Below the pieces are notes generated by a model that was not told the origin of the DNA, made no database searches, and saw only the letters and a list, made by a program, of their open reading frames with translations. Positions 17,037 to 63,915 of a stretch of 64,000 nt of DNA are shown one piece after another. Made by a program: the position numbers and the translations under genes. This DNA comes from a virus (Duplodnaviria > Caudoviricetes): positions 175,692-239,691 of IMG/VR virus record IMGVR_UViG_3300020576_002947; one strand, given 5' to 3'. Numbering within the stretch: the first letter of the stretch is position 1; each line of letters opens with the position of its first letter.

Positions 17037-17682
17037 AATGTTTCTTTAGTTCCTCTTCAGGTAGTGCAGTAGATCCTACTCCGCCAGAAAGAAATGTCTT
17101 ATTATCTACTAGACCGATCCTATAATCTGATATCTTTGATGATACATAGGTCATCGTGCCAAAGTTATTCTCTGCATTGAAGGTTACGGTGCTTCCTCTG
17201 TCAAAGCCATAAGCCGCCGCTACACCCCAAGCATCTTGGTTAGCACCAAGATAAGTAAATACCCATCCTAGTTCTGTACGACCACTAATAAGTGCTGAAA
17301 GCTGATCTGACTTAAACTCCTTACTTGCGTTCTCACAGCCATCCGTATAAGTAATAACGATAGGTGCAAGATAGTTCTTCTTCCACTCCATAGAATTAAT
17401 AACTGTATGTACTGAGTCTACTAGAGCTGTCATGCCTCTTGGAACAAAGGTTTCCCTTGTTAGATCCTGTACCTTAGATGCTTCTACATCAAGGCAATAT
17501 TCAAGTAGTTCATGGTCAAATAGATAAATTGAAACAAAACTCTTAACCTTTTGATCCTTTCTAAGATCAGCAAGCATTGAGTTCACTCCACCAATAACAT
17601 CATTAACAATACTACCCATCGAACCGGAACGGTCAAGGATCAAAACTACTTGCTGATTTTTAACAGGCTTTTGAATTTTCAT
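17023..17682 (-). CDS. von Willebrand factor A domain protein
   Basis: ILDRSGSM MIDAS, GMTAL, TDGCENAS, FTYLGAN motifs. Confidence 0.92.
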   Translation of the reverse strand: MKIQKPVKNQQVVLILDRSGSMGSIVNDVIGGVNSMLADLRKDQKVKSFVSIYLFDHELLEYCLDVEASKVQDLTRETFVPRGMTALVDSVHTVINSMEWKKNYLAPIVITYTDGCENASKEFKSDQLSALISGRTELGWVFTYLGANQDAWGVAAAYGFDRGSTVTFNAENNFGTMTYVSSKISDYRIGLVDNKTFLSGGVGSTALPEEELKKHYEQQ

Positions 17683-17685
17683 TAC

Positions 17686-18723
17686 TTATAATGTAATCTC
17701 ATCCTCCAAACTTATTAGGTCCATGGCATTGCTTACTTCCGCAATAGTATTCTTATCTATCATATACTCAAAGTCCTTATAATCTACTTCTTTAATTTCT
17801 GCTAAGGTCTTAACTTGACTTTCATCTGCATTGCCAACGTATACTGAAATATTTACTCTTCCAGGTCTAAGAAGAGCTGGTGGTATATTATTAAGGTTAT
17901 TTGAAGTGGCTACAATACAGAGATCGTTAGATAGATAGCCATCAAAAATCTGTAGTAGTGTGTGTAGATTCTGCTTGTTTGTATTTAAGAGTATATCCAA
18001 ATCCTCAAAGACCATCAACCCATAATCTATCTCACTTACTGCCATTCTTAAGTTGCCTGGGTTCATATCTGTAGTAAATAAATAAACAGGTAGGTTTTCT
18101 TGCAGAGCTAGCAAAGTGCTAAAGGTAGTCTTGCCTGTTCCAGGAGGCCCATGAAGCAGAATTGATTTTCTTTTTTCAGCAGGAACTTTTAGTAGATTAG
18201 TTAGCTTATCTGGAAGTGGTAGAAGATCAGGTCTTACAACACGGCTAGATGAGAACTTCCAGTTAAAATTATAGGAATAAGAACTTACTTTACTATTAGG
18301 GGAACTTAAATTTTCTAGCCTAGCTACAAGCTCATTAATATCACCTTGTAAAACAAACAGTTCTATCCTAGACTCTCTAGAAGGTTTCTTTGGTGGCCTA
18401 CCTTCAAGAGTATTCGGAACTGTATAGTAACTATTAGGCTCGAAGTACCAGAACAAATAGAAACCTTCCCAATGAAAAGCCTGCGTAGTAGGGTACTTAA
18501 TCTTATCGTTATATAAACATCTAGTAGGATTTAAAGTTAAAAGGATATCAGCTAGCTTACCACCTTTATCTGAAGACAACTCTAGTACGAGCCTAGGAAT
18601 GCTAAGAAACCTTAATATTTGTGATATCCTATAAGGTGTTGCATTAATATCATCAATAGTTTTTGTTAGCGTATGGAAGTTACTGCTAAACAACGAGAAC
18701 TTTCTTAAAAGATCTGGAAGCAT
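17686..18723 (-). CDS. AAA+ ATPase
   Basis: LLHGPPGTGKT Walker A, MVFEDLD Walker B, ATSN, ALLRPGR. Confidence 0.92.
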   Translation of the reverse strand: MLPDLLRKFSLFSSNFHTLTKTIDDINATPYRISQILRFLSIPRLVLELSSDKGGKLADILLTLNPTRCLYNDKIKYPTTQAFHWEGFYLFWYFEPNSYYTVPNTLEGRPPKKPSRESRIELFVLQGDINELVARLENLSSPNSKVSSYSYNFNWKFSSSRVVRPDLLPLPDKLTNLLKVPAEKRKSILLHGPPGTGKTTFSTLLALQENLPVYLFTTDMNPGNLRMAVSEIDYGLMVFEDLDILLNTNKQNLHTLLQIFDGYLSNDLCIVATSNNLNNIPPALLRPGRVNISVYVGNADESQVKTLAEIKEVDYKDFEYMIDKNTIAEVSNAMDLISLEDEITL

Positions 18724-47432: not shown

Positions 47433-47483
47433 ACTATAACAAACAACGTGCCCGGATGGCGGAATGGCAGACGCAGCGGACTT

Positions 47484-48215
47484 TTAAAATTCTACACATT
47501 TTGCACTAATTAACTGAGTCTACCTATTACATTATAGGTATGGAACAGTTGATATGCAAAGTATGTGGAAGCCCTAGAAAGAAAGGTAGGCGCTTATGCA
47601 GTAAATGCAACAGCGATAGAATGGCTCAATATCCCAGATATACTTGGGAGAAAGAATGTGTGGCTTGTAAAGAGGTTTTCTCGGCTCTTAGAAAACGATC
47701 TATTCTATGTCCTGATTGTTATAAACAGTCTAGGAAAAAAGAGGACTTGTCCTCAAATAACTACGTACCAGGGAAACCTAATAAACGTGGTCATAGAATA
47801 ATCGCAGAAAAGATCTTGGGAAGAATCTTAAGCTATAACGAAGTTGTTCACCACCTAAATGAAGATCCAAAAGATAACTCTGTAGACAACCTTTGGGTAA
47901 TGTCAAGGAGAGATCATGCAAGACTTCATTCTTTTCTAGAGTTACAAAGAGTCATATGGGAGAAATCCTATACGGAGAAGAGTGTAAATTGCTGGAATAT
48001 CGTTAGAGTCTTGCAAACTACAGCATGGTTGGAAACAACGGGTGCGAAAGTTCTAAAATTGCAAGAATTCGACAATCAGCAGCCAAGCCCCTAAGGAGAA
48101 ATCTATGGGGAAGGTTCAGAGACTATACACACTCAACCCAAACGTGTAATGACGTGGGTTATGATATAGTCCAGCGCACAACTTGCAAGAGGATCGTGAA
48201 AGCGATAGTGTGATG
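47484..48215 (+). mobile_element. group I intron (732 nt) carrying an HNH endonuclease ORF
   Basis: P1 gactt/gagtc with U-G at splice site; aattgctggaa, aatcagcagcc, gttcagagactatac, atgatatagtcc; terminal G. Confidence 0.92.
47540..48094 (+). CDS. intron-encoded HNH homing endonuclease
   Basis: CxxC Zn motifs; HRIIAEKILGR..EVVHHLNEDPKDNSVDNLWVM..H; C-terminus reads into intron core. Confidence 0.9.
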   Translation: MEQLICKVCGSPRKKGRRLCSKCNSDRMAQYPRYTWEKECVACKEVFSALRKRSILCPDCYKQSRKKEDLSSNNYVPGKPNKRGHRIIAEKILGRILSYNEVVHHLNEDPKDNSVDNLWVMSRRDHARLHSFLELQRVIWEKSYTEKSVNCWNIVRVLQTTAWLETTGAKVLKLQEFDNQQPSP

Positions 48216-48285
48216 AAACTCCGCAGCCACTTGTGGCATGGGGGTTCGAGTCCCCCTCTGGGCACCACAACTTTAAGGAGAAACA

Positions 48286-49048: not shown

Positions 49049-49119
49049 TGCCTCTTAGTGAAATGGTACCACGCCTGCCTTTGGTGCAGGAGTTTCAGGT
49101 TCGAGTCCTGGAGAGGCAA
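49049..49119 (+). tRNA. trnQ: tRNA-Gln (TTG), nested, no encoded CCA
   Basis: tgcctct/agaggca, gtg/cac D arm, cctgc-ctTTGgt-gcagg, tcagg-ttcgagt-cctgg. Confidence 0.85.
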
Positions 49120-49675
49120 CAACTTTAACCTTTCTTTTAGTATTCTTACCACAGAAAGTATCAGTTTGGCTATGACAGTTAGGACATAAAAGCTCCAAAT
49201 TCTCTAGGCGATTATCTGTCTTAATACCATTCTTATGCTCCAACTGTAATACAAGAGGCTTATCTCTCCAAATAGGGTCAGTACCACACCCTGCACATTG
49301 ATTTAGCAATAGACCTTCTTTAAGTAAGCGTCTTTTCAGATAACCTCTGCTAGTTTGAGGTCTATCTATAACTAGTAGTTCTTCTATTGGAATAGGCTCT
49401 TTCTTTATTAGAATCAAATCTCCTCTTTTAGTAGCTTTTTCAATGGACCTTTTGGAAATGCCACAAGATGTAGCAGTAGTTCTAATAGATTGAAGATCGT
49501 TATAAATACTTTGAATTTCGCACCAATTAAGAACTTTTGCGACAGGCCTACTTAGTACATCTTTAGATGTACAAATCCAAGCTATTGTAGATTTAGGTAT
49601 CTTAGTAATATGGGAAATCTTCCCATAACTCTTTCCCTCTTTCCTCAGCTTAAGAACTACATCTCTACTATGCAT
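49055..49675 (-). CDS. HTH-HNH endonuclease, antisense to tRNAs
   Basis: Start MHSRDVV; HTH GKSYGKIS..IPKSTI; CAGCG..LQLEHKNG..DNRLENLELLCPNCHSQT; C-terminus reads antisense through tRNA-Gln. Confidence 0.9.
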   Translation of the reverse strand: MHSRDVVLKLRKEGKSYGKISHITKIPKSTIAWICTSKDVLSRPVAKVLNWCEIQSIYNDLQSIRTTATSCGISKRSIEKATKRGDLILIKKEPIPIEELLVIDRPQTSRGYLKRRLLKEGLLLNQCAGCGTDPIWRDKPLVLQLEHKNGIKTDNRLENLELLCPNCHSQTDTFCGKNTKRKVKVVASPGLEPETPAPKAGVVPFH

Positions 49676-49693
49676 TACTGTACTAATAATGTA

Positions 49694-49727
49694 AGGGGTC
49701 GGGGTTCGAGTCCCTGAGAGGCAGCCA
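49694..49727 (+). pseudogene. 3' half of split outer tRNA (Gln-like)
   Basis: cgggg-ttcgagt-ccctg-agaggca-g-CCA. Confidence 0.8.
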
Positions 49728-49744
49728 ATTCTTGAGAAGTTGAA

Positions 49745-50077
49745 ATGTGTAAAGAAAACCATCTTCGACCAATTTACTCTTTTGGTGTATTTATGACCAG
49801 GTGTAGAATAGGAGCTGACTTATCATTCAATGAGTTGGTTGAAAAACTATCTATACCTTTTGAAGATCTTCGTCAGTATGAACAAGGAGAAGTTCATGGT
49901 TTGGATAGAAGTTTTATCAATATTTGGAGTAAGTCTGTTAACAAAGATCCTGAGCAAGTTTGGGATAGGCACTTGAGCTGTATTAACGCTCATAACATTG
50001 CAAAAGGTTGGTATGTTGAAATACAGCTACCAAAACTACCTTTCCATTATGATGTTTTACCAGGAGATCCTGTCTAG
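49745..50077 (+). CDS. XRE-family HTH protein
   Basis: R..ADLSFNELVEKLSI....LRQYEQG. Confidence 0.7.
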   Translation: MCKENHLRPIYSFGVFMTRCRIGADLSFNELVEKLSIPFEDLRQYEQGEVHGLDRSFINIWSKSVNKDPEQVWDRHLSCINAHNIAKGWYVEIQLPKLPFHYDVLPGDPV

Positions 50078-50080
50078 TAA

Positions 50081-50496
50081 ATGCTTAGTATAATTTTTAA
50101 ATCACTTATGTTTGGTTTGATTGAAGCTATGATAATAGTTCAGTTGAATCTTTTAATAAAAGCAGGGCAGAATGCTGCAGGAGTAATCTGTTTCTCTTTC
50201 TTTCTACACACAGTCTTTCTAATATTTTTCAGTATATGGCTTGACAAAAACAGTTTGTTAGAATAATGACAAGAGAGCTTTTTTGGTTTTGTTGTGCTTC
50301 ACTTTTATTTGTAATATCATATGTATTCCATTTACTCTTCAAGAAAGAGGATAAAAAAGAATATATTGTTGTAAAAAAGTATACTTATGATTTTTTAAGA
50401 AACGCGTTTATGTATTTTGGCTTTAGTATAGTAGTTCTTTTAACTATTCATATCTTATTCAAATATAGTATGTACTTTGAGTCAATGTTCAAATGA
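50081..50496 (+). CDS. two small membrane proteins
   Basis: 50081-50266 and 50266-50496, hydrophobic. Confidence 0.65.
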
Positions 50497-51162
50497 CCTA
50501 TGAAGAATTTGAATCCCTAAAAGTTGGTGATGTTGTCAGAGTTGTTCCTAACAAAGGCTGTGCATACAATCCTGATATGCAGATCTTTATTACAAGAGAT
50601 AAAAAAAGTACCTATGCTAGATTTGTAGGTAGAGATAACGTAAATCTTGAAAACAATAGAATATATAATCTAAATGGACATCGCTTTTATGAAAGAGTAT
50701 TACCAGTTTGTATTTAAAAAAACCGATGACACGAACTGAATTCAATTCTTTACAAGTTGGTGATGTAGTAAAAGTTATAGCTACTAAAGACTGTGGCTAT
50801 TCGCATGGAACTGAGATAGTTATTACAAGACTACGTCTTCATAGTGATGATTGTATTAGTGGTATAAATGCAGTAAATCCTTGTGATATGATTGCATATC
50901 GTCTTTATAATCCTAATTTTTATTCTCGACTAGACAAAGTTTGTATATGACAGTTCAACAGTGGGATTCCCTAAAAATTGGAGATACTGTTACTGGAATT
51001 AAAACAAAAAGAGAGTATAGAATCTTAGGTAAAGACCTAAGAGAGTATAGAAGTAAGTATGGTCCAACATACTCTTACTTATCTATAGATGGTCGTGGTT
51101 ATTGTATACTATTAACACCATCATTTTATGAGCTAAAAATAGAAGATCTTGTCTGTATTTAA
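50493..51162 (+). CDS. three tandem ~70-aa SH3/KOW-like paralogs ending in VCI (50493-50717, 50726-50950, 50947-51162)
   Basis: MT..EF.SL.VGD.V pattern; C-termini PVCI, KVCI, LVCI. Confidence 0.8.
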
Positions 51163-51180
51163 TCAAAACACCACCCCCAC

Positions 51181-51516
51181 ATGAAGCAACATTGGTCAAC
51201 AATTGCGGGCCTAACGGCATTATCTTTCCCAATTGTTATTAAACTTTTTTTAAAACAGCCTCATCTCGTTACAGCTTTATCTATTATTCCTGTTATGCAG
51301 TATATGGAAAAGCATTGGAAGATTACACCCCTGCTTTCAAAGGTGCTGGGAATTTTGCTTTTCTCAGGCTTCATGATTTTGTCTTGGATCTGTGCAGAAA
51401 TTGTGGTATTTTTCTGCGCTATTGCTTTCGCACAAGAAGCTATTCATTGGGCTAGCGTTATTAGAACTAATTGGAAGAAGCATTATACAAAACCACAGCC
51501 TGTCCAGGTAGCATGA
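51181..51516 (+). CDS. membrane protein
   Basis: Hydrophobic segments. Confidence 0.65.
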   Translation: MKQHWSTIAGLTALSFPIVIKLFLKQPHLVTALSIIPVMQYMEKHWKITPLLSKVLGILLFSGFMILSWICAEIVVFFCAIAFAQEAIHWASVIRTNWKKHYTKPQPVQVA

Positions 51517-51635
51517 CGACTTTTACTGAAAAAGACTTAGACTTTTTTATTGAAACTGAACAAAACGTTCTAATCAAAGGAAAGAAGGGTGTTGGTAAAA
51601 CACACCTAATCTTAGCTGCTTTTAAGAGAAATTGA
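51513..51635 (+). pseudogene. truncated AAA (MoxR-like) ATPase fragment
   Basis: MTTFTEKDLDFFIETEQNVLIKGKKGVGKTHLILAAFKRN*: Walker A then stop. Confidence 0.6.
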
Positions 51636-51708
51636 ACAACCTAGCAACTTAAGAGCTATCCCAAAGACCTGTAATATCTATGATCTAAGCAAGTTTGAAT
51701 GAGTCTCT

Positions 51709-52368
51709 ATGAAACCCATCACCACAACAGAAGAGCTTATTGAATTTACAGCATTCCATGGAATTCCTTTCAAGAGTGATGTTGCTATGGATTCATTAAT
51801 GGATAGAATTAAGAATCTTAATGATCCAAGAAGAAAGTATCATACTTGGGATCATATTGAAACTTTTATCACGAGTTTTGGCGCTATTAAGGATATTAAT
51901 CAAAGGAAGGAGTATTTCTTAGGTGCTGTATTTCATGACAGTATTATGGAATACAGACCTGATGATGTTGAAAGGTCATTAGTTAACTTTAACGAATGGT
52001 GGTCTTTATATAGACAAACAGAACCATCTGTTGATCCATCAATGATCAGAAACTTTATTAATAATAGTACTGACTATTCAGCATGTGAAATTGATATCAA
52101 AGCAAGAAACGAAGTTTTATTTGCTATGGATGACTTATCTATTTTAAGCTCTGATAAAGATACTTATAATCTTTATGTAGTAAACATTCTTAAAGAAATC
52201 CAGAACTTTACTCAACTAAGTATAAGTGAAATTCTTACAGCAAGAATAAATTTCCTTTCAAATCTACTGCTAAATGCAAACTATTCACTGATTCTATCTG
52301 TACCTAAATTTCAAACAAATGTGAAGAACGAGATTATCTTTTTGAATGCAATGAAAGGAGGCTTTTAG
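51709..52368 (+). CDS. HD-superfamily phosphohydrolase
   Basis: RKYHTWDHI, AVFHDSI, DDLSIL motifs. Confidence 0.8.
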   Translation: MKPITTTEELIEFTAFHGIPFKSDVAMDSLMDRIKNLNDPRRKYHTWDHIETFITSFGAIKDINQRKEYFLGAVFHDSIMEYRPDDVERSLVNFNEWWSLYRQTEPSVDPSMIRNFINNSTDYSACEIDIKARNEVLFAMDDLSILSSDKDTYNLYVVNILKEIQNFTQLSISEILTARINFLSNLLLNANYSLILSVPKFQTNVKNEIIFLNAMKGGF

Positions 52369-52372
52369 TAAC

Positions 52373-52747
52373 ATGACACAAGAACTAGCTAATATTATCA
52401 CAAGTGGTATCTTTATTGTTATATTTTGTGCAGCAGCATATTGGGATAGTGTTAAAAATGATACTTCACCATTATCAGTTGTTTCTAGTATTGCTGCTGT
52501 TATTTGTTTTATATGGTTTTTTATTTCCGTAATTTGCTTGATTTCTACATTACCTTCAGCTAAGCCAAGTAAACCCACTGCTTATACTACTAAAGAACAA
52601 GATCTGATTAAAAAAGAATCTGAGTTTAATAAGCAGGTACTCGAGCTACTTGAAGTAACCCACGATCAAAAGACACGAGATGCTATTTTTCTTGTTGTAA
52701 AGCTTAATAACAAAGTTAATTATTATAGAAAGCTAGGAAGAAATTAA
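52373..52747 (+). CDS. membrane protein
   Basis: Two TM segments. Confidence 0.65.
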   Translation: MTQELANIITSGIFIVIFCAAAYWDSVKNDTSPLSVVSSIAAVICFIWFFISVICLISTLPSAKPSKPTAYTTKEQDLIKKESEFNKQVLELLEVTHDQKTRDAIFLVVKLNNKVNYYRKLGRN

Positions 52748-52860
52748 ATGCCAAAAGAACTTTTGGCTATCTGTGCTCATCCAATAGGTGGTCCTATTGT
52801 TATCTTTTTCTTTGTTTGGGGAGTTCTTAATATATTTGATAATAGAAGGAAGTCTAACTA

Positions 52861-54381
52861 ATGGGACTTTTTGGATTTGTTAAAGACGTTCTAGTAGATG
52901 GACTTGGAGGGTCTAATGTCGTATGGGCTATTGGTTCTCAAGCTATTAAATCAAAACTTCCACAATGGAAAGAAATGGGCTATGAAGAAAAGCCTAAGTT
53001 TGGAATTCTTAAAGGTCTTAACCAGTTTTATTATGATCTTCCAGTAATTAATCAACCTAGATCAGTACCTGCTAAAATTGAACTGCACGAAGCTAAAAGA
53101 GCTGGCACTCATCTTGACTTTAGATTTAAAGTAGATGGCCGTGTTTATGATTTTGCTGTTGTTAAAACAGACATTTTCCCAGAAAAGACTGGTATCGTAC
53201 AGAGAGTTGTAAGAAGACATAACCACTCTCTTAAGTATTTTGATAAGGAATCTTTTGTCTTCCCAGAAGGATCATATGGAGAAGGCAAGATGAAAACTAT
53301 CTGGAGAGGTGATATTGATATCATCGAAATGTCACCAGAAAAGATGGAATTCAGTATCAATGAAGGTAAATTCCAGGGTCGTTATTGTATCTTTACTGAA
53401 AAGTCTCCCATTCTTAATGAGGCTGCAGGAATGATACGTATGAAAGACCCTGTTTTGATTCATAAAGACAGATCTAAATTCTCATCTGATCCAAAGAAGC
53501 TTGAAGTTGCTTATGGAGACCCTGATACTATTTCTGAGTGGAAAGTTGATGGAGCTAACTATACTCTAAGATCTGGTGATAAACCAGGAACTAATCAATT
53601 GATTAGTAGAAGACTTTCAGTAACAGGAGAACCAATTAACCAGGTGGATAAGCTTCCTAGCCTGAAGTTTTATAAGATTCCTGATAAATTTAAAAACAGA
53701 GCTATCCATGGAGAAGTATCCACAACCTACGAAAATGTTGCTAAGACAGCAGGAACCTTAAACAGTAATTCAACTAGATCTAGAAACCTTCAAAGTACTG
53801 GAAAGTATGGTGATAGGCTTGTTTTCAATGTTTGGGATATTGAAGGAGAGGGTACATATGAAGAACGTAGTCTCGAACTTCGTGAATTAGCTAAAAGCTC
53901 TCCTAGAATTGATAATAGATATTTTGGTGACAGAAGAGACCAGTTCTGGTTTAGAAGAATCACAAACCCACGAGTTATTGCTCCTGTTGCAAACAACAGA
54001 GACCTAAAATGCTCTCCTAAGGAATTTACTGATTTGGTTAAGCAAGTAGGAGGAGAAGGAACTGTTCTTAAGAACCTTAAAGCTAAATACTATGAAGATA
54101 CTTGGCTAAAAGATAAAGCTTCTGACACACACACTCTTAAGATTATTAATTTTAAAGAAGGTAATGAGAAGTATACTGGAAGTCTAGGCGCTCTTATTGT
54201 TGAATCAGATGATGGTACTATCAAAGGTACCGTTGGAACAGGATTCAGTGACGAACTTAGACAGAATATCTGGGATAACAGAGAAGATTTAAAAGGTTCT
54301 TATATTGAAGCAGAGTGTCATGAAGTGACAGAAAATGGTGTTCTAAGAGGACCCAGATTTAAAGAATTCAGTCGGGGTTAA
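52861..54381 (+). CDS. ATP-dependent DNA ligase with N-terminal LigD 3'-phosphoesterase domain
   Basis: HEAKRAGTHLDFRF..HSLKY..EGSYGEG (PE); EWKVDG, HGE, FNVWD, EGTVLK, WLKDK; OB fold VGTGFSDE..LRGPRF. Confidence 0.9.
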   Translation: MGLFGFVKDVLVDGLGGSNVVWAIGSQAIKSKLPQWKEMGYEEKPKFGILKGLNQFYYDLPVINQPRSVPAKIELHEAKRAGTHLDFRFKVDGRVYDFAVVKTDIFPEKTGIVQRVVRRHNHSLKYFDKESFVFPEGSYGEGKMKTIWRGDIDIIEMSPEKMEFSINEGKFQGRYCIFTEKSPILNEAAGMIRMKDPVLIHKDRSKFSSDPKKLEVAYGDPDTISEWKVDGANYTLRSGDKPGTNQLISRRLSVTGEPINQVDKLPSLKFYKIPDKFKNRAIHGEVSTTYENVAKTAGTLNSNSTRSRNLQSTGKYGDRLVFNVWDIEGEGTYEERSLELRELAKSSPRIDNRYFGDRRDQFWFRRITNPRVIAPVANNRDLKCSPKEFTDLVKQVGGEGTVLKNLKAKYYEDTWLKDKASDTHTLKIINFKEGNEKYTGSLGALIVESDDGTIKGTVGTGFSDELRQNIWDNREDLKGSYIEAECHEVTENGVLRGPRFKEFSRG

Positions 54382-54383
54382 TT

Positions 54384-55997
54384 ATGGCATACTCTGGTTA
54401 CAGAGCCGAAACAGCAAAAAGAGATCTTGAAATCTTCAAAGATAAAGAAGGTTTATCAGAACTTGTATTTAATCTTGTTATAGATGATATTAGAAATGCA
54501 GTTACAAAACAAGGTTGTAGTATTATAATAACAAATCTTAATGATTATGTTACTATTAGCAAAGAATCTTGTTTCTTACCAAGAGTAGTAAAACTAAAGA
54601 TTATAAAACGACTAAGAAAAAACGGTTTTAAAGTTCTTTGTCTTTACCCAACTTTTAATACTTGTATCTGGTTTTAGGCAAATGATTGGAATAAACGGAC
54701 AGGAAATGTTAGTTAATGATCCTTTTTCTATCCCTGTTTACATAATGATTATCATTGCTTTTGTTATTTCTTTAAGTATACTAATTGTTGATGTAAGAGA
54801 TGCCAGTATTCCAGGCCAATGGAAAGCTTTCTTAAGGCACTTAAGAAATGAAATTTTTCAGCTCCCTGTGCGTATTTGTTTAGGTATTTTTGATATTATA
54901 GTAGCCATCTTTTTCGGAGTTATGGCTGTAGTTTCAATAATTTTAGGACTCTTAATTAATATTACAGATATTATTAAAGTACAGCTAGAACTTAAAGACT
55001 GGAGAGGCTAGATGGATCTGATTCATAAACTGGAGAAAGAGCTACAATACCCTAAAACAGTATTTGTCCTAGAATATTTGGCAGTTAGAGGAGATTTTCT
55101 ATGTGCTAGTTCTAAAACTATCTCAAAAATCCCTGAAGGTTTATATATTATAAGTTCTACAAGTTTACTTGCACTTTTAGCCTTCTGTACTGCTATAGAA
55201 AGTACATATAAGTATTGCCCTGTTCCTGTTGATTTTGAAATGCTTCGGAACACGATAATTAGTGGCAATTCTAAAGGGCTTGGTAACATAAGAGGTCTTA
55301 TCGTAATAGATGATAATACTAATTTAAGTTATATGACTAAAGAACGTACTTACTTTACTGATGATGTAAATATTATTTATTTTAACTAAATAGTTACATT
55401 ATAAACAACTACCTCTAGCAGAAATTGTTATGACTAAAACTATCCTTTTAATTATTGAAGCTTCAAGTGACGAGCCCTATTTAAGAGGGCCTAGTACTTT
55501 CGAAGCAACTCTTGAAGCCGCCGCCCGTCATAGGGAAGACAACCCTGAAGATAAACTATTCTATTTGATTGTAGATGAAAAAGGCAACGTAGAAGTATCC
55601 TCTTTCTCAGAAGACGATTTTATAAACGTGCAAGTAGAAACTGATATCTCATGGGATTGGGATGAAGAAGAATTACCAGAAGAATCTTGATTTAATAGAA
55701 GCAGGTTTTATAGTTTTTCTGTTACTGGTATTGCTCTCTGTAGTAATACCAGTTTCTGTTATAGAAACAATCTATAAACCTAATATTATAAACTCTGGAC
55801 CTTATTCTGTAGTTGTTTGGCTTGATAATAAAAGTGTAGTTTTTACTGATCCAGAAGTTCTTGAAAACAAAGAATGGGTTATAGTATGTAAAGATTATCG
55901 AAATATTTATAATACATCTTTAAGCCTAATAACACACCCCAAACAGGTCAAAAGACAGCATTCCAATGTTCAAGTCAAGCTTCCTAGCTCAAATTAA
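54384..55997 (+). CDS. five hypothetical proteins (54384, 54682, 55012, 55430, 55662)
   Basis: ORF track, coupled. Confidence 0.6.
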
Positions 55998-56724
55998 GAA
56001 ACTTGTTTATATTGATAAAGCAAAGTTTATCTATCTTGTTGGAAGCAAAATCATTCTATCTTCAAAAAAGCCTAGAGCTTTGAACATACAAGAATCATTT
56101 ACTCATGAAGGAATGATGTATGTTATTCTTGATAAGCTTGTACATAATGATGGTGTTACTTACTTCTACTGTGCTAGTAAAGACTCTGGTTGCTATACTA
56201 GAAACTATTTACAATACATAAGCCAGTTTATGAAGCTAACTTGTGCAGGTAGGCTTCTTCAAGAAAATTTATTCCCTAATCCTAAAGAGATTACAGAGTC
56301 TATGGGAGCTATTGAAGCTATTAGAAAACATGGCTATGATCCTAAAGACAACGTAACATGTATAGTCATTGGTGACGGCCACAAGCCCCGTACAGGAGCA
56401 ATGATAGCATTTAGGTCTATGTATGAGGTTATTGTTGTAGATCCTGCTTGTGATTGGAACAAGAGTTTTGACAGACTGACTGTAATTAAAGACTATATCG
56501 AAAACGTTAAGTTGCCCTCTGTAGATAAGGCTTTAATTGTATGTGTTCATTCTCACGCAGATCCTGTAAAGTCTTGGAATTGTATTGAAGCAAAAGAAAA
56601 AATAATGATTGCAATTCCTTGTTGTATTCCATATAAAGTGAAAGGCATGCCTGACTTATATGATTCCTATATCGATCCTATGATTATTAGTCCACACAAT
56701 GAAATTTTGGTTTGGAAGAAATGA
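55966..56724 (+). CDS. SAM-dependent methyltransferase-like protein
   Basis: CIVIGDGHKPRTGA, IVVDP, VHSHA, IAIPCC. Confidence 0.6.
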   Translation: MFKSSFLAQIKKLVYIDKAKFIYLVGSKIILSSKKPRALNIQESFTHEGMMYVILDKLVHNDGVTYFYCASKDSGCYTRNYLQYISQFMKLTCAGRLLQENLFPNPKEITESMGAIEAIRKHGYDPKDNVTCIVIGDGHKPRTGAMIAFRSMYEVIVVDPACDWNKSFDRLTVIKDYIENVKLPSVDKALIVCVHSHADPVKSWNCIEAKEKIMIAIPCCIPYKVKGMPDLYDSYIDPMIISPHNEILVWKK

Positions 56725-56918
56725 CACGGGAACAATTTAAAACAGTGCTTATAGGTACACAAATGATAAGTAATCTAAATACAGAAGTTATTGTTTTAGG
56801 CCATACTCCTAAAGGTATTAGACTCAATATTATTACTGCAAAAGGAAGAATTGATATTGTTCCTTATTCATTCCATAAACATTGGAGAATAGATTATAGA
56901 ATTCCTGTTTGTATATGA
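56721..56918 (+). CDS. ~65-aa SH3-like paralog ending in VCI
   Basis: MTREQFKTVLIG...RIPVCI. Confidence 0.75.
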   Translation: MTREQFKTVLIGTQMISNLNTEVIVLGHTPKGIRLNIITAKGRIDIVPYSFHKHWRIDYRIPVCI

Positions 56919-58111
56919 AAAAGCCAACAAAATCACAGCTAGAAGAGATTAAAAGAGAAAAAACTAGGTTAGCACTTAAATCGTATGATCTAGTAAAACC
57001 TCAGAAAGTTAAAGCAAGGTCCTTAACCTATAAGGACTATTTTGACTACTTGGACTGGCCTAATATTTGTCATTTTGTTATAAGAAATCCAGAAGAGTTT
57101 GTACCTAAATCTTATAATATAAATAAAAATATAGAAAACTTTATTAAACACTGCTTTGTTAAAAAATACCCACCCCCTGATTTCTTATGGTACTACATAT
57201 ACAGCAAAGACTACAAGAAAACCGTTCGTGATGACACACCTAGGGCTTATAGGGGCACTCTCGAAGCTCTTAATAGTCAAGAGATACAACTAGTTAGAAG
57301 TTGGTTTATACATCTAGCAAGAGGCGAGAGTTTTAAAAAAGTATCTAAAGATGTTTTTAATGCTAAAGAAGCTCATTACTTTCTAAACTTTCCTGACCCT
57401 AACGAAAACAATATTTTTTTAAGAGCGCAGGTTAGTATTCTTCTTGCAAGAGGAATTCCCTTTAAGTATGCTCTAAAAGTAAACAGATGCTTTCCTAGTG
57501 GGATGGGACCTTTACAATTACTAGTTAACAAGACAAGAAAGATAGTAGAAGTAGTAAACTTTTTTGCTAACTACCACGAACAAATTCCTTTAGACGATCT
57601 TCAGGAAATCTGTGACTATATTAATTATGCTTACAATAACACACCAGGCTATAGTCTTAAAGATAGAACAGCTTCATCTATCATCAAGTTTTCAAATACC
57701 TGGCATAATATAAGAGCTAGGCATGCTAGAGAAAACAGAAACATTCAAAGAATAGCTTATAAAGCACCTGAAGCTCCAAAGAGTTGGCCTGGTTTAGGAT
57801 TAGGTACTTTCTTTAAGCACAAATATGAGAAAGAGTTTATTCCTGTACAAGCAAAAGAATTAACAACTACACAGGAGCTGCAAGAGGAAGGTTACTACCA
57901 ACGTCACTGTGTAGGTTCTTATAGTTATAGTTGTGCTAATGGTTCTTGTTCTATTGTCAGTCTTCGTTATAGTGACAAAATTAGAATCACTCTTCAAATA
58001 ACAAAAGGTCATATATATCAAGCAAAAGGGAAATTAAATAAAATGCCAAATGCTCTTGAGATGGATATTATAAAGGAATACTGTAAACAGAAGAATGTGT
58101 TTTACGAATGA
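56915..58111 (+). CDS. PcfJ-like domain protein
   Basis: WH..., ELQEEGYYQRHCVGSY...ITLQI...QAKGKLN. Confidence 0.85.
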   Translation: MKKPTKSQLEEIKREKTRLALKSYDLVKPQKVKARSLTYKDYFDYLDWPNICHFVIRNPEEFVPKSYNINKNIENFIKHCFVKKYPPPDFLWYYIYSKDYKKTVRDDTPRAYRGTLEALNSQEIQLVRSWFIHLARGESFKKVSKDVFNAKEAHYFLNFPDPNENNIFLRAQVSILLARGIPFKYALKVNRCFPSGMGPLQLLVNKTRKIVEVVNFFANYHEQIPLDDLQEICDYINYAYNNTPGYSLKDRTASSIIKFSNTWHNIRARHARENRNIQRIAYKAPEAPKSWPGLGLGTFFKHKYEKEFIPVQAKELTTTQELQEEGYYQRHCVGSYSYSCANGSCSIVSLRYSDKIRITLQITKGHIYQAKGKLNKMPNALEMDIIKEYCKQKNVFYE

Positions 58112-59279
58112 ATAACTACCCAATCAGATATATAAATGATTCTTTTCCTTTAAGTGAAACTGCAAATACAGAGAAGTATAGACGTTTAGTAGAAGACTTT
58201 ATAACTATTGTTAAAGACATTGTTAATGATGACTATGATGAAATGGTAAGGCATCTAAAACCTTTACGTAAAATGCCAGCTAAAGGAGTGTTTTTCTTGT
58301 TTTTTCCAAGGTACGGAGATTTCTTTCTCCTTCTCCTTTCAACCGGAGAGGAGCTTAACGGGTCTCTATTGAGAGCTTTGGTTCTACTTAATAGAAATGA
58401 TATAATGCAGTACGCTTATGATGCTTCCTGTGGTTGTTGGGATGAAAAAGAAAGATTTTATACTTTTGATCATCTAATTACCAAGGTGTGTATCTAAATG
58501 AAGACATGGTATGGACATGAGATATATGAAACTATTTATACAGATAGTTACAGGGATTTAGTATCATCAATATACGATCTTCTAAAAACATACCCAAAAG
58601 TAGAAGATATTCATGATGATAAATTAGGAAACTTTATACCTCTTCTTAAGAGACCTGCTATAGGAGAACCTTTCTTGTTTTGCCCTAACGATAAAAGATT
58701 CTGCCTTTTCGTTTGTACAGAGTATGATAAAGAACATACTTGGATGGAAAGAGTAATGGCACTACCTCTTCTTGTTACAAATCCAAAACCAGTATCCGTT
58801 ATAGCACTAGATTCTCCATGTGGATGTTCAGATTGGGGTGAGGAAAGATTTTTTCGCCTAAAGCCTCTTAATACGGTGTGCATCTGATGACTTACTGGAA
58901 TGGTATCGAAGTAAAAGAATCTGTTTATGCTGGTGAATACAAAGAAATTGTTTCCAGCTTTCTTCACCTACTTAAAAATTTCCAAACTTTTGAGTCTTTT
59001 AAAGCTGATAATGATATATTTATTCCTCTTCTAAGTAAAGCTCCTGAAGTTGGGGAACCTTTTGTATTTTGTCCTTCAAATAGTAAACTATGTTTATTTC
59101 TATGTACAGAACAGTTTGGAAATGACTACTGGTCTTCTGTTCAAACATTGCCCCTTCTAGTAGCTTTAAACTTTGATGCTGCTGAGGAAATTCCTTTAGA
59201 TGCTGCTATTAGACGCTCTTATTGGACAACGTCAAGATTCTACACTTTTAATATACCTGCCAACAAAGTGTGCATCTAA
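58108..59279 (+). CDS. three tandem ~130-aa paralogs ending in VCI (58108-58497, 58498-58887, 58887-59279)
   Basis: Y..LV..F/I, PL...P..GEPF.FCP, RF; C-termini KVCI, TVCI, KVCI. Confidence 0.8.
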
Positions 59280-59955
59280 TGGATATTTCAAAAGCAACCA
59301 TAGGTCAAACTGTATATCTTACCTTATTAACAGAAGTATATTCTGCTACTATTGAAAGTATTGATCTAAAGAATAATAAGATTTTTATAAAGTCACCCAC
59401 TCAACCTAGTGGTACAAGATACCATCCAAAAGCACTTTTTGATAATAAAGTAGACGCTTATAAAGAACTACATCAAAAAACTCTTGTCCTTCTTAGTTAT
59501 AATCAACTACAAGAGAAAAGAGTAGTAAGTCGATTGGTAAAACTTGAAACTGAGATCAGAAAATGCTCAAACTAAAAGACGGATCTACTTTATGCTTCGG
59601 ACATGTAGATTTTAATCAATACTATAAGCATTCAGGAATTCTTTATGATCTTGAAAAGGATTACTTAGGACTCAAAATTGCTTTATCCCAGCTTGCATTT
59701 TCTTTACTTATGATCAAGTACCTTTTAGGTTATACCGGAATATACTCTCGAGTTAGAAAAGATAATAATTTTTATTATTTTTCCTCATTAAATAATAAAG
59801 TACAGCTAGTATGCAGAAGAGAACAATTTTCTGGATCGGTAACGATGCAAGAAGCTGCTATGGAATTAAATACTCTGTTTGTTGAGGATATTTGTAAGAA
59901 TGCTATTCGTCGTTGTGATAAAATGTTTCGTTTTATTACAAGGAATTTTAAATGA
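59279..59955 (+). CDS. two hypothetical proteins (59279-59575, 59563-59955)
   Basis: ORF track. Confidence 0.65.
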
Positions 59956-61358
59956 AAACAAACAAGAAACCCAACCCAGAGCCTATCTTTACAGCAGGAG
60001 GCGGAAAAGCAGTAAAGACCTCCAAGCTAAACCAACTTAAAAGATCTGTATGTGCCTGTTTTCTTTGGGAGAACTCGTTCTATGAAGAAGGTGTTTCGAT
60101 CTCAGACAGAATTTTTAACCTATGTCAAGAAGTCCCTGTCCAGGAAGTTTGCAGTCTTGCAATTGAGGTAAGACAAAAGTTTAATGTCAGGCATGCTCCT
60201 TTATGGATGCTTGTAGCTCTTTTAGAGAAAAAGAATCTTTCTAAAGATGAGAGATTGCTTATCGGAAAAACCATTCCAGAAGTTGTTAAAAGAGTTGACG
60301 AAATAGGTGAACTCATTTCATTGTATTGGAAAGTAAGAGGTCGAAGACCATTAGCTAAACAGCTAAAACTAGGGCTAGGATGGGCTTTTAACAACTTTGA
60401 CGAATATCAGTTCTCAAAGTATAATTCTACTAAGGCTAATGTCAGACTTATTGACCTTCTCAGAATTATCCACCCAAAACCAGTATCTCCTGAAATGGAT
60501 GCCTTGTTTAGCAAGATTAAAACGAATACACTAAAAACTGCAGATACATGGGAAACAGCTCTTTCTGCTGGTGCTAATAAAAATGAAACATTTACTAGAC
60601 TTCTTAATGAAAAGAAGCTTGGCTATACTGCTCTTGTAAAGAACGTTAGAAATATGAAGGAATCTGGAGTTGATAAGACTCTAGTACAGAATGCTTTCTT
60701 AACACTCTCTGGAGGTGAAAAAGTTTTTCCGTATAGATTTATTACCGCTGCTAGGCACTGTCCTGAGTGGGAAGATATTATTGATGAAGGGCTGGTACAT
60801 AGCTTCAAGAATCGTATCAAAATCCCTGGAAAAACAGTTATTGTTATTGACATTTCTGGCTCCATGTATGCTAAGATGTCTGCTAAAAGTGAATCTACTA
60901 GATTAGACGCTGCAACAGCACTAGCAGCTTCTTTAAGAGAATCATTCACTGATGTATCTATTTATGCTACATCTGGTGATGACTATTCTAGAACACATGC
61001 TACTCAGATTGTTCCAGCTAGAAGGGGTAGCGCTCTAGCAGATGCTATTGTAAAGTGCCAGTCTGCTTTAGGACATGGCGGTATTTTCTTAAAACAGGTT
61101 ACAGACTTTATTCAGTCTAAGGAAAAGTCTGTTGATAGACTTATTGTTATCACTGATGAACAGGATTGTTCTATTGATGATAAAGATAAAGCTCACTTAG
61201 CCCAAACATTTGCTAAGAATAATTACATGCTAAATGTTTCCTCTGAGAAGAATGGGATTGGTTATGGTAGCTGGATTCACATTGATGGGTTCAGCTCTTC
61301 TGTGGCTGATTATATTCATTCTATCGAACAGTGTGAACTGTTCCAATGCTGTATTTGA
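59952..61358 (+). CDS. rsr: Ro60/TROVE RNA-binding protein with vWA domain
   Basis: FLWENSFYE, FDEYQFSKY, TWETALS, ALVKNVRNM, FPYRF, DISGSM, ITDEQ, IDGFS; ends CCI. Confidence 0.93.
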   Translation: MKTNKKPNPEPIFTAGGGKAVKTSKLNQLKRSVCACFLWENSFYEEGVSISDRIFNLCQEVPVQEVCSLAIEVRQKFNVRHAPLWMLVALLEKKNLSKDERLLIGKTIPEVVKRVDEIGELISLYWKVRGRRPLAKQLKLGLGWAFNNFDEYQFSKYNSTKANVRLIDLLRIIHPKPVSPEMDALFSKIKTNTLKTADTWETALSAGANKNETFTRLLNEKKLGYTALVKNVRNMKESGVDKTLVQNAFLTLSGGEKVFPYRFITAARHCPEWEDIIDEGLVHSFKNRIKIPGKTVIVIDISGSMYAKMSAKSESTRLDAATALAASLRESFTDVSIYATSGDDYSRTHATQIVPARRGSALADAIVKCQSALGHGGIFLKQVTDFIQSKEKSVDRLIVITDEQDCSIDDKDKAHLAQTFAKNNYMLNVSSEKNGIGYGSWIHIDGFSSSVADYIHSIEQCELFQCCI

Positions 61359-61385
61359 TAGTAAGTAAGGTATAAGATTGGTTTT

Positions 61386-61405
61386 GAGGCCTCGAAAGAG
61401 GCCTC
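61386..61405 (+). terminator. hairpin downstream of Ro60
   Basis: gaggcctc-gaaa-gaggcctc then ttt. Confidence 0.6.
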
Positions 61406-61414
61406 TTTAAGTTT

Positions 61415-61544
61415 GGGCGGCGACAGAGACGATTTCATCGCATGTTAAGCGGGTTGTCGCAGGTTCGAATCCTGCCTTCCGAGCAATCGGATGTAGCTCA
61501 GTTGGTTAGAGCACCTAAAAAAGATCGTTTCAACCCCTTCCCCC
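61415..61544 (+). ncRNA. yrlA: YrlA-type Y RNA with permuted tRNA-like domain
   Basis: Ro-binding-like 5' ggcgacag; stem gagacgattt/agatcgtttc encloses T arm gcagg-ttcgaat-cctgc, acceptor stem closed by GCAA, then D arm gctc-agttggtta-gagc; directly after Ro60. Confidence 0.85.
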
Positions 61545-61551
61545 AATCCCT

Positions 61552-62139
61552 CTATATATGTCTACAGTCTGGGTATGACTCAGCGGTAGAGTGTCTACTT
61601 ATCTCCTGAGCTATTTGTTCCGAGATTAACTCCTTAAACTTCTTGCTATGGATATACTTATGGTGAGTTGGGCAAAGCGGAATTAGATTTGAAGGTGTAT
61701 TATCCAAACGATTACTGTTTAGATGATGCACTTCCACAATATTCTGCTCATTACAAACCAAACACTTATGTGGATACGTTTCAAAACAAATAGAACGGTA
61801 ACAAGACTTACCTAATACCCAATTTGGATGCTTAGTTCTTGAGCGGAAATAAGTATTGGAGCATGATTTAGAACATACTGACTTTTCTTTTGCCGTACCT
61901 ACTACAGTCTGAAACTCCTTACTGCAAACAGGGCAAATCTTTACCTTTCGTAAGTGTTGATACCTTTTTGCTTTATACCCATTTTGTAGATCATCCCTCC
62001 ATCCTTTAATGGATAGGAGCTCTTTTAAGATTGCCCTATATCTTTGGTTAGTAGGAGATTTTAATCTAACTAGAAGATTATTAAGGCTAGTTGCTTCATC
62101 AGCAATTTCTTTAGTAAGATTTCTTTCGATCAGTGTCAC
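61552..62139 (-). CDS. HNH endonuclease, antisense inside a split tRNA
   Basis: CPVC..CSKSC, CLVC..EVHHLNSNRLDNTPSNLIPLCPTHH. Confidence 0.88.
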   Translation of the reverse strand: MTLIERNLTKEIADEATSLNNLLVRLKSPTNQRYRAILKELLSIKGWRDDLQNGYKAKRYQHLRKVKICPVCSKEFQTVVGTAKEKSVCSKSCSNTYFRSRTKHPNWVLGKSCYRSICFETYPHKCLVCNEQNIVEVHHLNSNRLDNTPSNLIPLCPTHHKYIHSKKFKELISEQIAQEISRHSTAESYPDCRHI

Positions 62140-62206
62140 ATTAACAATAGAGATCGGATATGCTGCGATTGAAAGACGAATAGTTCAAATCCTGCTATCC
62201 AGACCA
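61569..62206 (+). pseudogene. split tRNA (Pro-like): 5' half 61569-61600, 3' half ~62180-62206
   Basis: ctgggta-tg-actc-agcggta-gagt-g-tctac-tt ... gttcaaatcctgc-tatccag-a-CCA; acceptor strands pair; T stem decayed. Confidence 0.7.
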
Positions 62207-62230
62207 CCATCTTCATAAATATCACAAATT

Positions 62231-62297
62231 AGGCGGCGCTAGAGACGATTTCATCGAAACTCAATTGGAAAATCAGATCGTTTCATTACCTTCCCCT
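62231..62297 (+). ncRNA. second, short Y RNA without tRNA-like domain
   Basis: ggcggcg..agagacgatttcatcg and agatcgtttca..ccttcccc shared with 61415-61544. Confidence 0.8.
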
Positions 62298-62353
62298 ATA
62301 TCTTAGTTTTCGAGAGGAGGCTTTTTTTTGCTATTGTTTAGACAAGAAAACTC

Positions 62354-62590
62354 ATGGTACACCACCTCAATAATGGAGATATCATTGCTTCTTTTGAAGA
62401 CAACCAATTAGTTGTATTATCTCCATGTGGTGTAATCAAGACCTTAAAAGGTAAAGTCATTATTAATGAATCTGGTATTAAAAGTGTTGAGTCCTTTACA
62501 GCTGAACATGATGCATCCTTAACAGATATAGGTAGATTAATGTATGAAGTATTCCAATCTACAAATGCTAGACTAAGAAAGGGACTTTAA
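62354..62590 (+). CDS. hypothetical protein
   Basis: ORF track. Confidence 0.65.
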   Translation: MVHHLNNGDIIASFEDNQLVVLSPCGVIKTLKGKVIINESGIKSVESFTAEHDASLTDIGRLMYEVFQSTNARLRKGL

Positions 62591-63177
62591 TGGCAAAAAA
62601 AGAAGAAACCATAAGTATTCCTATCAAGGAAACTATTGATGAGATACTTTCTTTGATAGGTACAGAACCTAGTGCTTATATTACAGCATTAGACGGAAAT
62701 ACTTATAAAGTTGGAACTAAATCACTAAGACTACTTACTTTTAAAAACACTGGCGTTGTCTGCCCTTTTTGTGGAATTACTGCAACTCACTTTACTATTA
62801 GTTACCAAGCAAAGAGTCTAAATTACCACCTAAACTTGTTCTCTAATGATATACTATTTACTCATGATCATATAGTTGCTAGAAGCAAAGGTGGTAAGGA
62901 CGATCTCTCTAACACACGTACAATGTGTGGTCCTTGTAATTGGGGAAGAGGTGATGGAAAGAATGATAATAACTTAAAAAGAGTTACAGTATGTTTCAAT
63001 CCCAGAAGTAAGAAGTGGCTTGTTAAAGTTAATAAAAGTAAGAGGGTTAGAGACTACGTAGAAGCCTTTGACAATGTAGATGATGCTATTAAAAGGTCTT
63101 ATGAGATCACACCAAACCCTAAAATTTCAGAGTTCTCAAAAGAGCTTTATGATAAACTAGTTGACCAACCTTCGTAG
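62590..63177 (+). CDS. HNH endonuclease
   Basis: CPFCG...FTHDHIVARSKGGKDDLSNTRTMCGPCN. Confidence 0.88.
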   Translation: MAKKEETISIPIKETIDEILSLIGTEPSAYITALDGNTYKVGTKSLRLLTFKNTGVVCPFCGITATHFTISYQAKSLNYHLNLFSNDILFTHDHIVARSKGGKDDLSNTRTMCGPCNWGRGDGKNDNNLKRVTVCFNPRSKKWLVKVNKSKRVRDYVEAFDNVDDAIKRSYEITPNPKISEFSKELYDKLVDQPS

Positions 63178-63232
63178 TACCTTAAAGTATAAACAAATAA
63201 AATTGATTTAGTTTTTTATTTAAGGTGTGTTT

Positions 63233-63915
63233 ATGAAAAAGCTAACTGACAAAGAAATAGAAAGTACACTAAATTTTATTCATAAACATATTCAGTTTGG
63301 AAAGAAATGTCCTTTTAAGAGACTTGGAAAAACTAAAAGTATAAGAGATCTTACAAACAAATTTTTTGTCTATTGTGATTATGATGGACCATTAAATGAT
63401 GTAGACATAAGAATCCTTTATATCGAAAAAGTAGTTAGTAAACAAAATGTTAGTGTATCTTTAACACACAAAGGTATTTTTAGTAAAAGTTCTAACTGGT
63501 ATCTTGATATAGGAGCATGGTTTGAAGTACCAAATGATCTATATAATCATCAGGTATGCATATGAGTATAGATAATACTGACTCAACTTCTTTTATCCGT
63601 AAAACATTAAAAGATATCTTTGATAATATTGACCAATATAAACAGTATTACAATATCAATAATCGATTATATCTAACAGAAGATAATTTTAGATTGTGTA
63701 AAGGTAAAATCTTTCTTTATACCGATAGCTTAGGTCCGCTAGATAAAGACAAAGTTAGAGTTCTTTATGTGGCTAAAGTTTATAATGATAAACGAGTTGC
63801 TGTAATTTTCTATAATTCAAAAGGAAAGTTTTATTCTAGTTCATCATGGACTCTTGAATTAGGTGTATGGTTTGAAGTTCAAAGTTATACAGCTAACAAC
63901 AGAGTTTGCATCTAA
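63233..63915 (+). CDS. two tandem ~115-aa paralogs ending in VCI (63233-63565, 63562-63915)
   Basis: Y.D..GPL....R.LY..KV, SS.W.L..G.WFEV; C-termini QVCI, RVCI. Confidence 0.8.

Follow-up and report, generated by a model that had tools for sequence, protein, structure and literature searches.

The last 64 kb of a linear, 239,691-bp tailed virus record (Duplodnaviria; Caudoviricetes; IMG/VR record IMGVR_UViG_3300020576_002947, positions 175,692 to 239,691, here called the window) encode proteins with a shared C-terminal tag, V-C-I directly before the stop codon. An earlier note, made from the letters of the window, had described this tag on nine open reading frames (ORFs) of three families (A, B and C), together with a C-C-I ending on a Ro60 protein. 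We confirmed all ten endings as well as the degeneracy of their codons, with four Val, two Cys and three Ile codons followed by TAA or TGA (Table 1). Genome-wide, the tag was found on 51 of 320 called genes, about one in six, and only 10 of these lie inside the window. We conclude that the tag is very probably a lineage-specific C-terminal recognition peptide that is read by a common partner. It sits at the exact C-terminus, is universal in family A of this genome, occurs on at least three folds and follows the last strand of the family A barrel. Placed on a free tail, it would allow one shared partner, with a pocket reading the three tag residues and the carboxylate, to deal with some 50 small, soluble accessory proteins encoded in a tRNA and RNA-repair region.

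The enrichment was evident in a count of C-terminal tripeptides across the genome. VC[IVL] endings occurred in 45 of the 320 called genes (0.055 expected), and Cys was the penultimate residue in 52 (3.8 expected). The 51 tagged genes comprise 35 VCI, 8 VCV and 2 VCL endings and one each of VCM, VCQ, VCR, PCI, LCI and CCI. Among the 403 ORFs of at least 60 aa, VCI was the most frequent C-terminal tripeptide (35 ORFs), followed by VCV with 7, while the next reached 3. Inside proteins VCI was not enriched, with two occurrences in about 67,000 residues. The DNA pattern GTNTGYATH was followed by a stop codon in 38 of 63 matches on the plus strand vs. 2 of 21 on the minus strand.

The motif appears to extend beyond the tripeptide. 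Position -4 was never Asp or Glu in the 51 tagged proteins (P = 0.0014), and position -5 was Asn, Asp or Gly in 21 of them (P = 5e-5), with the paralogs behind both values not being independent. Therefore, we estimate the motif to be about five residues long, with the fuller form [N/D/S/T/H]-[K/R/L/I/V/Q/P]-V-C-[I/V/L]-COOH. A hydrophobic residue was present at -10 in 35 of the 51. The tagged set is soluble and lacks export signals, with a transmembrane-like stretch in a single protein, and shows no basic bias (median isoelectric point 7.8 vs. 6.2, P = 0.16). Similar endings without Cys were VAI on two genes and VMI on three, and these fit a tag that is read by shape. The VMI proteins are small and acidic and end in LLVMI or ILVMI, the VAI proteins are larger, and we regard both as possible Cys-free variants (L005, genome 87029-87916 and 85209-85718; L003, genome 49111-49692).

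Whether the signal resides in peptide or DNA needed a real test, because foreign family A homologs (L021-L025) appear to share an IxLGG tail. This proved to be the translated AGGAGG Shine-Dalgarno sequence that serves the overlapping gene behind it, and claims of shared tails can easily go wrong in this way. The tag itself behaves differently. Its Cys codons (37 TGT, 11 TGC) are in line with genome usage (76/24%), all four Val codons occur, the final position is filled by Ile, Val, Leu or Met codons, and the stops are of three types. The start codon of the next gene overlaps the tag as ATGA in 22 of 48 tagged genes; the others lie at 0 to +54, and five genes have no start within 60 nt. In 20 pairs of strain orthologs, the three tag codons showed five synonymous and two conservative V/I changes, whereas positions -4 to -6 showed nine replacements and no synonymous change, numbers that are small though all in one direction; one pair ends in DLKVCV vs. 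EQMVCI. Synonymous codon use, the variable distance to the next gene, and orthologs keeping the tag while adjacent residues change thus support the view of the earlier note that selection acts on the free C-terminal peptide and not on a DNA site. The Val codons GTG and GTC are over-used in the tag (22 of 45 vs. 19% genome usage), an excess that may stem from common ancestry or from later adjustment of the sequence to ribosome binding. Readthrough of the stop codon was dropped as an idea because three different stops are in use, with TAG in only 4 of 48 genes.

Structure prediction places the tag outside the folded domain. The AlphaFold model of a family A member is an SH3/KOW-like small beta-barrel (mean predicted local distance difference test score, pLDDT, 85), with Spt5/NusG KOW and SH3 domains as best PDB matches (Foldseek probability up to 1.0, TMq about 0.6, E-values of 0.013 or higher and none at or below 0.001). 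The last strand comprises residues 66-68, and the VCI tail follows it with a pLDDT of 59 and no secondary structure. Family B was modeled poorly (pLDDT 54, tail below 50 and without secondary structure; best Z 3.7, to Tudor); the low-confidence model of the 58498..58887 protein has N-terminal helices, then a beta domain and a disordered tail. In the predicted structures of both families, the tail is therefore not a barrel strand, which speaks against the case that VCI is merely a structural last strand. The Trp of the last strand in family A lies at -11 to -15, so that tail length is narrow.

Within family A the tag is invariable. A hidden Markov model (HMM) built without the last four residues scored 30 paralogs in the genome, of which 30 were tagged, with no untagged paralog at E < 0.1, and the Cys at -2 was present in every one. 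The 65-aa protein at 56721..56918 was assigned to this family with a profile E-value of 5.6e-4 and an HMM E-value of 1.9e-5, but the latter comes from an HMM that had this protein in its training set.

Beyond family A, relationships are less clear. Profile comparisons with the tail removed linked only subgroups of family A and gave no significant match for families B and C, three further small families and the singletons; searches of the small tagged proteins against Pfam and PHROGs found no family. Structural matches of families B and C were weak (KOW, RimP-SH3, Tudor and Sm-like; atlas rows with TM < 0.5 by query) and without a profile match, those of family C being SH3/Sm-like. The three families thus share no sequence or profile similarity, but calling them unrelated, as the earlier note did, was partly an overstatement, given that B and C may be SH3-like as A is. 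These weak matches and the hydrophobic residue at -10 raise the possibility that most tagged proteins belong to one very divergent SH3-like superfamily that shares only the tail in sequence. Two tagged proteins have folds distinct from SH3, which brings the tag onto at least three folds. In Ro60, CCI sits on a short extension past the conserved last helix, and a Pth2-like protein of 99 aa at genome 24,729, whose homologs pass the Pfam PTH2 cut-off, ends in PLCI. Three unclassified proteins of 133-181 aa are tagged as well (genome 13224, VCV; 48585, VCM; 90107, VCI).

Judged from the sequences compared, the tag is confined to the phage's own lineage (90-97% nucleotide identity). None of 23 family A homologs from other lineages ends in [VI]C[IVLQ]; one ends in KCI, but not its ortholog. 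Neither the tag nor the short extension that bears it was found in any of 119 Ro60 homologs, and three Pth2-like homologs end in LLKV, LLNI and LKGVA vs. PLCI here. The syntenic relative G002, with a capsid identity of 34%, lacks both family A and the tag, and in both G001 and G002, at the same capsid identity, the VCI-stop pattern stayed at control level; relatives at 52-55% capsid identity are on short contigs and lie outside this comparison. Family B had no homologs in 90% clusters apart from its own cluster, and family C and the genome-90107 protein had none among cultured phages. Scans of viral and metagenome contigs for the DNA pattern of tandem tagged genes gave chance matches or none. 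G002 carries an array of its own with more than 20 divergent paralogs (L035-L037, about 11-49 kb). These have a C-terminal beta module in common, and its conserved LE[AP]I ending looks like the last strand of the module.

The tagged genes are also clustered. The record (G+C 38%, 94% complete according to CheckV) contains tail sheath, portal, intein-bearing terminase and major capsid protein genes, the capsid protein sharing 22-27% identity with its counterparts in Bacillus phage 0305phi8-36 and similar myoviruses. Both contig ends have C-rich runs, so the end of the window probably runs on into the start of the record. In this arrangement, 49 of the 51 tagged genes fall within a single block that joins window 50.5-64 kb to genome 1-28.8 kb and measures about 43 kb; about half of all genes in it are tagged. 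The other two tagged genes lie among replication genes. No tag occurs on the 70 genes of the stretch with the structural module, nor on the 55 genes at genome 196-226 kb. Situated on the opposite strand from the structural genes, the block contains many tRNAs and RNA enzymes (a CCA-adding/poly(A) polymerase-like enzyme, an RNA ligase and a HAD repair phosphatase), a radical SAM protein, Ro60 with a YrlA-like RNA, and 18 family A paralogs in a tandem array (genome 18,163-21,968).

As for the partner, we tentatively rank first that the tag is a degron or docking tail for a host cytoplasmic protease or unfoldase of the AAA+ type (ATPases associated with diverse cellular activities; ClpX, ClpC, Lon or FtsH type), a reading drawn by analogy. 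In Streptococcus mutans, the C-terminal tripeptides VTL, ETV and AAL are degrons for ClpX, ClpC and ClpE (PMC10782952). Similarly, RRKKAI of MuA and the AVLA ending of LpxC are C-degrons, and the tail of SspB binds ClpX (PMC8138137). Together with these precedents, the ranking follows from the soluble nature of the tagged proteins and their lack of export signals, which also argues against periplasmic Tsp/Prc, and from the VAI and VMI endings. As with such degrons, a short motif was found at the free C-terminus of unrelated cytoplasmic proteins and, in the predicted models, on an accessible unstructured tail. Acting as a C-degron, the tag would time the turnover of the tagged proteins; in a hypervariable SH3-like library, it could additionally be a constant adaptor tail that delivers the target of each barrel to the protease, in the manner of the SspB tail with ClpX.

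Several observations weigh against a recognition peptide of this kind. An invariant Cys is no feature of the Clp degrons in the literature compared (PMC10782952, PMC8138137), and a loose degron should drift to Ser or Ala, which was seen in none of the 30 family A paralogs. As most tagged proteins may share one SH3-like ancestor, the number of independent gains may be a handful. The narrow range of tail lengths would also suit folding back of the tail or its docking at fixed geometry. A promoter scan stayed at chance level and gave no expression timing. Furthermore, our scans of the phage for a reader (PDZ, CaaX protease, free intein, larger nonstructural proteins) identified none: there was no PDZ domain (PF17820) in the 94% complete genome, and Pfam scans of most larger nonstructural proteins returned no obvious candidate. 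The functions suggested earlier (packaging, degron, PDZ/TPR docking and Cys conjugation) are all conjectural; neither a PDZ domain nor a CaaX protease encoded by the phage was found.

Since the Cys never drifts in the 30 paralogs, thiol chemistry ranks next after the protease reading, although we consider it unlikely. The penultimate Cys would then be a chemical handle that is acylated, prenylated, metal-bound or charged as a thioester by a phage module of ThiF/E1 and a ubiquitin-like protein (Ubl) at genome 36972-41734 (L077:972-5731). There, a ThiF/E1 gene with a conserved PPC Cys, an upstream protein ending in WG plus one residue (WG-L here) and a large downstream protein with a conserved CAF/CAY motif form a possible Ubl-like conjugation module; the match to ThiF was confirmed. 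Besides this module, the turn residues enriched three positions before the Cys favor such chemistry. The tail resembles the active-site loop of E2 enzymes (G-x-[VI]-C-[IL]), and on this likeness the barrels would serve as a set of small transfer adaptors. Yet the same ThiF and WG-ending genes are conserved in the untagged syntenic relative G002, so that their co-occurrence with the tag gives no support, and no Pfam E2 match was obtained. Prenylation would call for Cys at -4 as in CaaX or for a terminal CC or CXC; here Cys is at -2, and a CC pair occurs only in Ro60. An Rce1-type CaaX protease was not detected (no PF02517 match in the genome; no search was aimed at a prenyltransferase). Given the VAI and VMI endings, a thiol may be dispensable in some cases. 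A two-residue split intein was considered and dropped because all three Intein_splicing matches lie inside long ORFs, with no free-standing intein, which likewise counts against Cys chemistry. In a broader and equally doubtful proposal, about 45 hypervariable SH3-like target-binding modules would plug via the Cys tail into one machine, either a host AAA+ protease or the phage E1/Ubl with the tail Cys as transfer site.

A somewhat lower probability is assigned to the tag as a C-terminal counterpart of the T4 capsid targeting sequence (CTS), which would load small counter-defense and RNA-repair proteins into the prohead for injection. The T4 sequence is N-terminal, about 10 residues long, removed by the prohead protease and present on few proteins. 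T-even internal proteins are a diverse set with only the targeting sequence in common (PMC3012670). The tagged proteins are likewise small, soluble, hypervariable and clustered among tRNA genes, and here too one signal is shared by diverse small accessory proteins. However, the shared element is the last three residues and not an N-terminal, protease-cleaved signal, none of the 70 genes of the structural-module region is tagged, about 50 cargo species far exceed the few internal proteins of T4, and the basic pI bias is missing.

Quite improbable, in our estimate, is an inherited structural element, in which the proteins form one SH3-like superfamily whose tail folds back or pairs with that of a neighbor (by strand, disulfide or metal bridge), with CCI on Ro60 and LCI on the Pth2-like protein arising by chance. 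The possible SH3-like nature of families B and C, the hydrophobic residue at -10, the narrow tail length and the strand-like LE[AP]I ending of the G002 paralogs are consistent with this. Against it, the tail has low confidence and no assigned strand in both models, foreign family A homologs have the barrel without the tail, and the tag is also found on Ro60, the Pth2-like protein and the three unclassified proteins; among the roughly 270 other genes, chance would give about 0.8 x-C-[IVLM] and about 0.05 V-C-[IVLM] endings. Least credible, and largely refuted, is a signal in the nucleic acid (a ribosome-binding site or translational-coupling signal for the following gene, or the end of a recombination cassette) read through as VCI: the AGGAGG-derived tails of foreign homologs, the ATGA overlaps and the GTG/GTC excess speak for it, but the motif is locked to the stop codon and frame, the next ATG lies at offsets anywhere from -3 to +54 and is lacking after five genes, wobble positions vary, amino-acid substitutions are conservative, and GTNTGY lies upstream of only 9 of 278 other genes.

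Table 1. Tagged genes of the window and the adjoining YrlA-like RNA (window coordinates)
Feature	Position	Strand	Detail
Family A, SH3/KOW-like, 74 aa	50493..50717	+	tag and stop GTT TGT ATT TAA at 50706-50717
Family A, 74 aa, member modeled with AlphaFold	50726..50950	+	tag and stop GTT TGT ATA TGA at 50939-50950; ATGA overlap with next gene
Family A, 71 aa	50947..51162	+	tag and stop GTC TGT ATT TAA at 51151-51162
Family A, divergent, 65 aa	56721..56918	+	tag and stop GTT TGT ATA TGA at 56907-56918
Family B, 129 aa	58108..58497	+	tag and stop GTG TGT ATC TAA at 58486-58497
Family B, 129 aa	58498..58887	+	tag and stop GTG TGC ATC TGA at 58876-58887
Family B, 130 aa	58887..59279	+	tag and stop GTG TGC ATC TAA at 59268-59279
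Ro60/TROVE-vWA protein, 468 aa	59952..61358	+	ends C-C-I: TGC TGT ATT TGA
YrlA-like Y RNA, directly after Ro60 (context, not tag)	61426..61534	+	42.6 bits, E 7e-8, below gathering score of 69
Family C, 110 aa	63233..63565	+	tag and stop GTA TGC ATA TGA at 63554-63565
Family C, about 117-119 aa	63556..63915	+	tag and stop GTT TGC ATC TAA at 63904-63915; final gene before contig end

Further features were observed around the tagged genes. The sequence GGCGGCG..AGAGACGATTTCATCG at the 5' side of the YrlA-like RNA recurs near window position 62230, ahead of the next gene block. HNH-type endonuclease ORFs at window 49055-49762 (-) and 61552-62139 (-) are inserted beside tRNA-like or Y-RNA genes. 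A tRNA gene at window 47450-48267 (+), apparently Leu(UAA), has a group I intron inserted at its anticodon (47924-48189, Rfam 70.9 bits), which in turn carries an HNH-like ORF (47540-48094). A tRNA with CUA anticodon at genome 23986-24058 (L002:5986-6058) is a possible amber suppressor, yet the genome has about 90% coding density under table 11. The radical SAM protein at genome 25537-26427 (L002:7537-8424), located between tagged genes, was assigned by motifs alone (RlmN/Cfr-like CxxxCxxC, MGAGEP and a late GCCG). A 40-aa ORF at window 51513-51635 (+) resembles the start of a 489-aa MoxR-like ATPase (genome 68264) and is probably a duplicated fragment. At the end of the structural strand (window 17023-18723, -), a vWA protein lies beside a single-domain AAA ATPase.

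Large phages carry arrays of tiny, fast-evolving genes, and the shared handle makes a sixth of the genes of this phage testable as a set. If the tag is a degron or adaptor tail, it would mean phage-directed proteolysis on a large scale; if a loading signal, a C-terminal counterpart of the T4 targeting sequence; and if a Cys acceptor, a bacterial protein modification not yet described. Should the proteins indeed form an SH3-like library that plugs into one machine through the tail, this would be a phage counterpart of viral E3-adaptor families and would offer a three-residue portable handle for targeted degradation or labeling in bacteria. In keeping with the earlier note, which knew of no described phage VCI tag, we came across neither a V-C-I tag nor a phage that marks a sixth of its proteins in this way. 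The literature searches, which covered few subscription journals, were directed at phage VCI tags, at phage motifs with a penultimate Cys and at ThiF/Ubl conjugation encoded by phages, and none of them gave a relevant result. C-terminal tripeptide signals as such are already known.

Like the C-degrons of AAA+ proteases, the tag occupies the terminal residues (three to six in such degrons) of unrelated cytoplasmic proteins, with a hydrophobic last residue and a free carboxylate, and it shares the V-small-aliphatic shape of the VTL degron of S. mutans. As a putative degron, it differs from those compared by its invariant penultimate Cys, and we found no report of a phage with one degron on about 16% of its genes. 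Class II PDZ ligands follow the pattern hydrophobic-X-hydrophobic-COOH with X normally loose, and bacterial Tsp/Prc is periplasmic. V-x-I-COOH conforms to this pattern, being hydrophobic at 0 and -2 with a free carboxylate, but unlike in these ligands and Tsp/Prc substrates X is invariant, export signals are absent, and the phage has no detected PDZ domain. SKL, the peroxisomal targeting signal 1 (PTS1), is likewise a C-terminal tripeptide signal. In the eukaryotic cytosolic iron-sulfur assembly (CIA) pathway, the targeting complex recognition (TCR) tripeptide is [LIM]-[DES]-[WF]-COO- (bioRxiv 10.1101/2023.05.19.541488). Like TCR and PTS1, the phage tag is a degenerate C-terminal tripeptide through which a single machine would be brought to many unrelated clients, whereas TCR is eukaryotic and of other sequence, and the clients here are not Fe-S proteins. 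As in the T-even CTS (PMC3012670), one short conserved signal marks diverse, lineage-variable small accessory phage proteins; it is a C-terminal tripeptide on about 50 proteins here, with a putative role in packaging. Finally, the family A fold resembles SH3/KOW-like small proteins (NusG/Spt5 KOW, OapB and YorP folds), with many uncharacterized look-alikes in phages, but the foreign homologs lack the tail, and an 18-gene tandem array with a constant tail is found only in this lineage.

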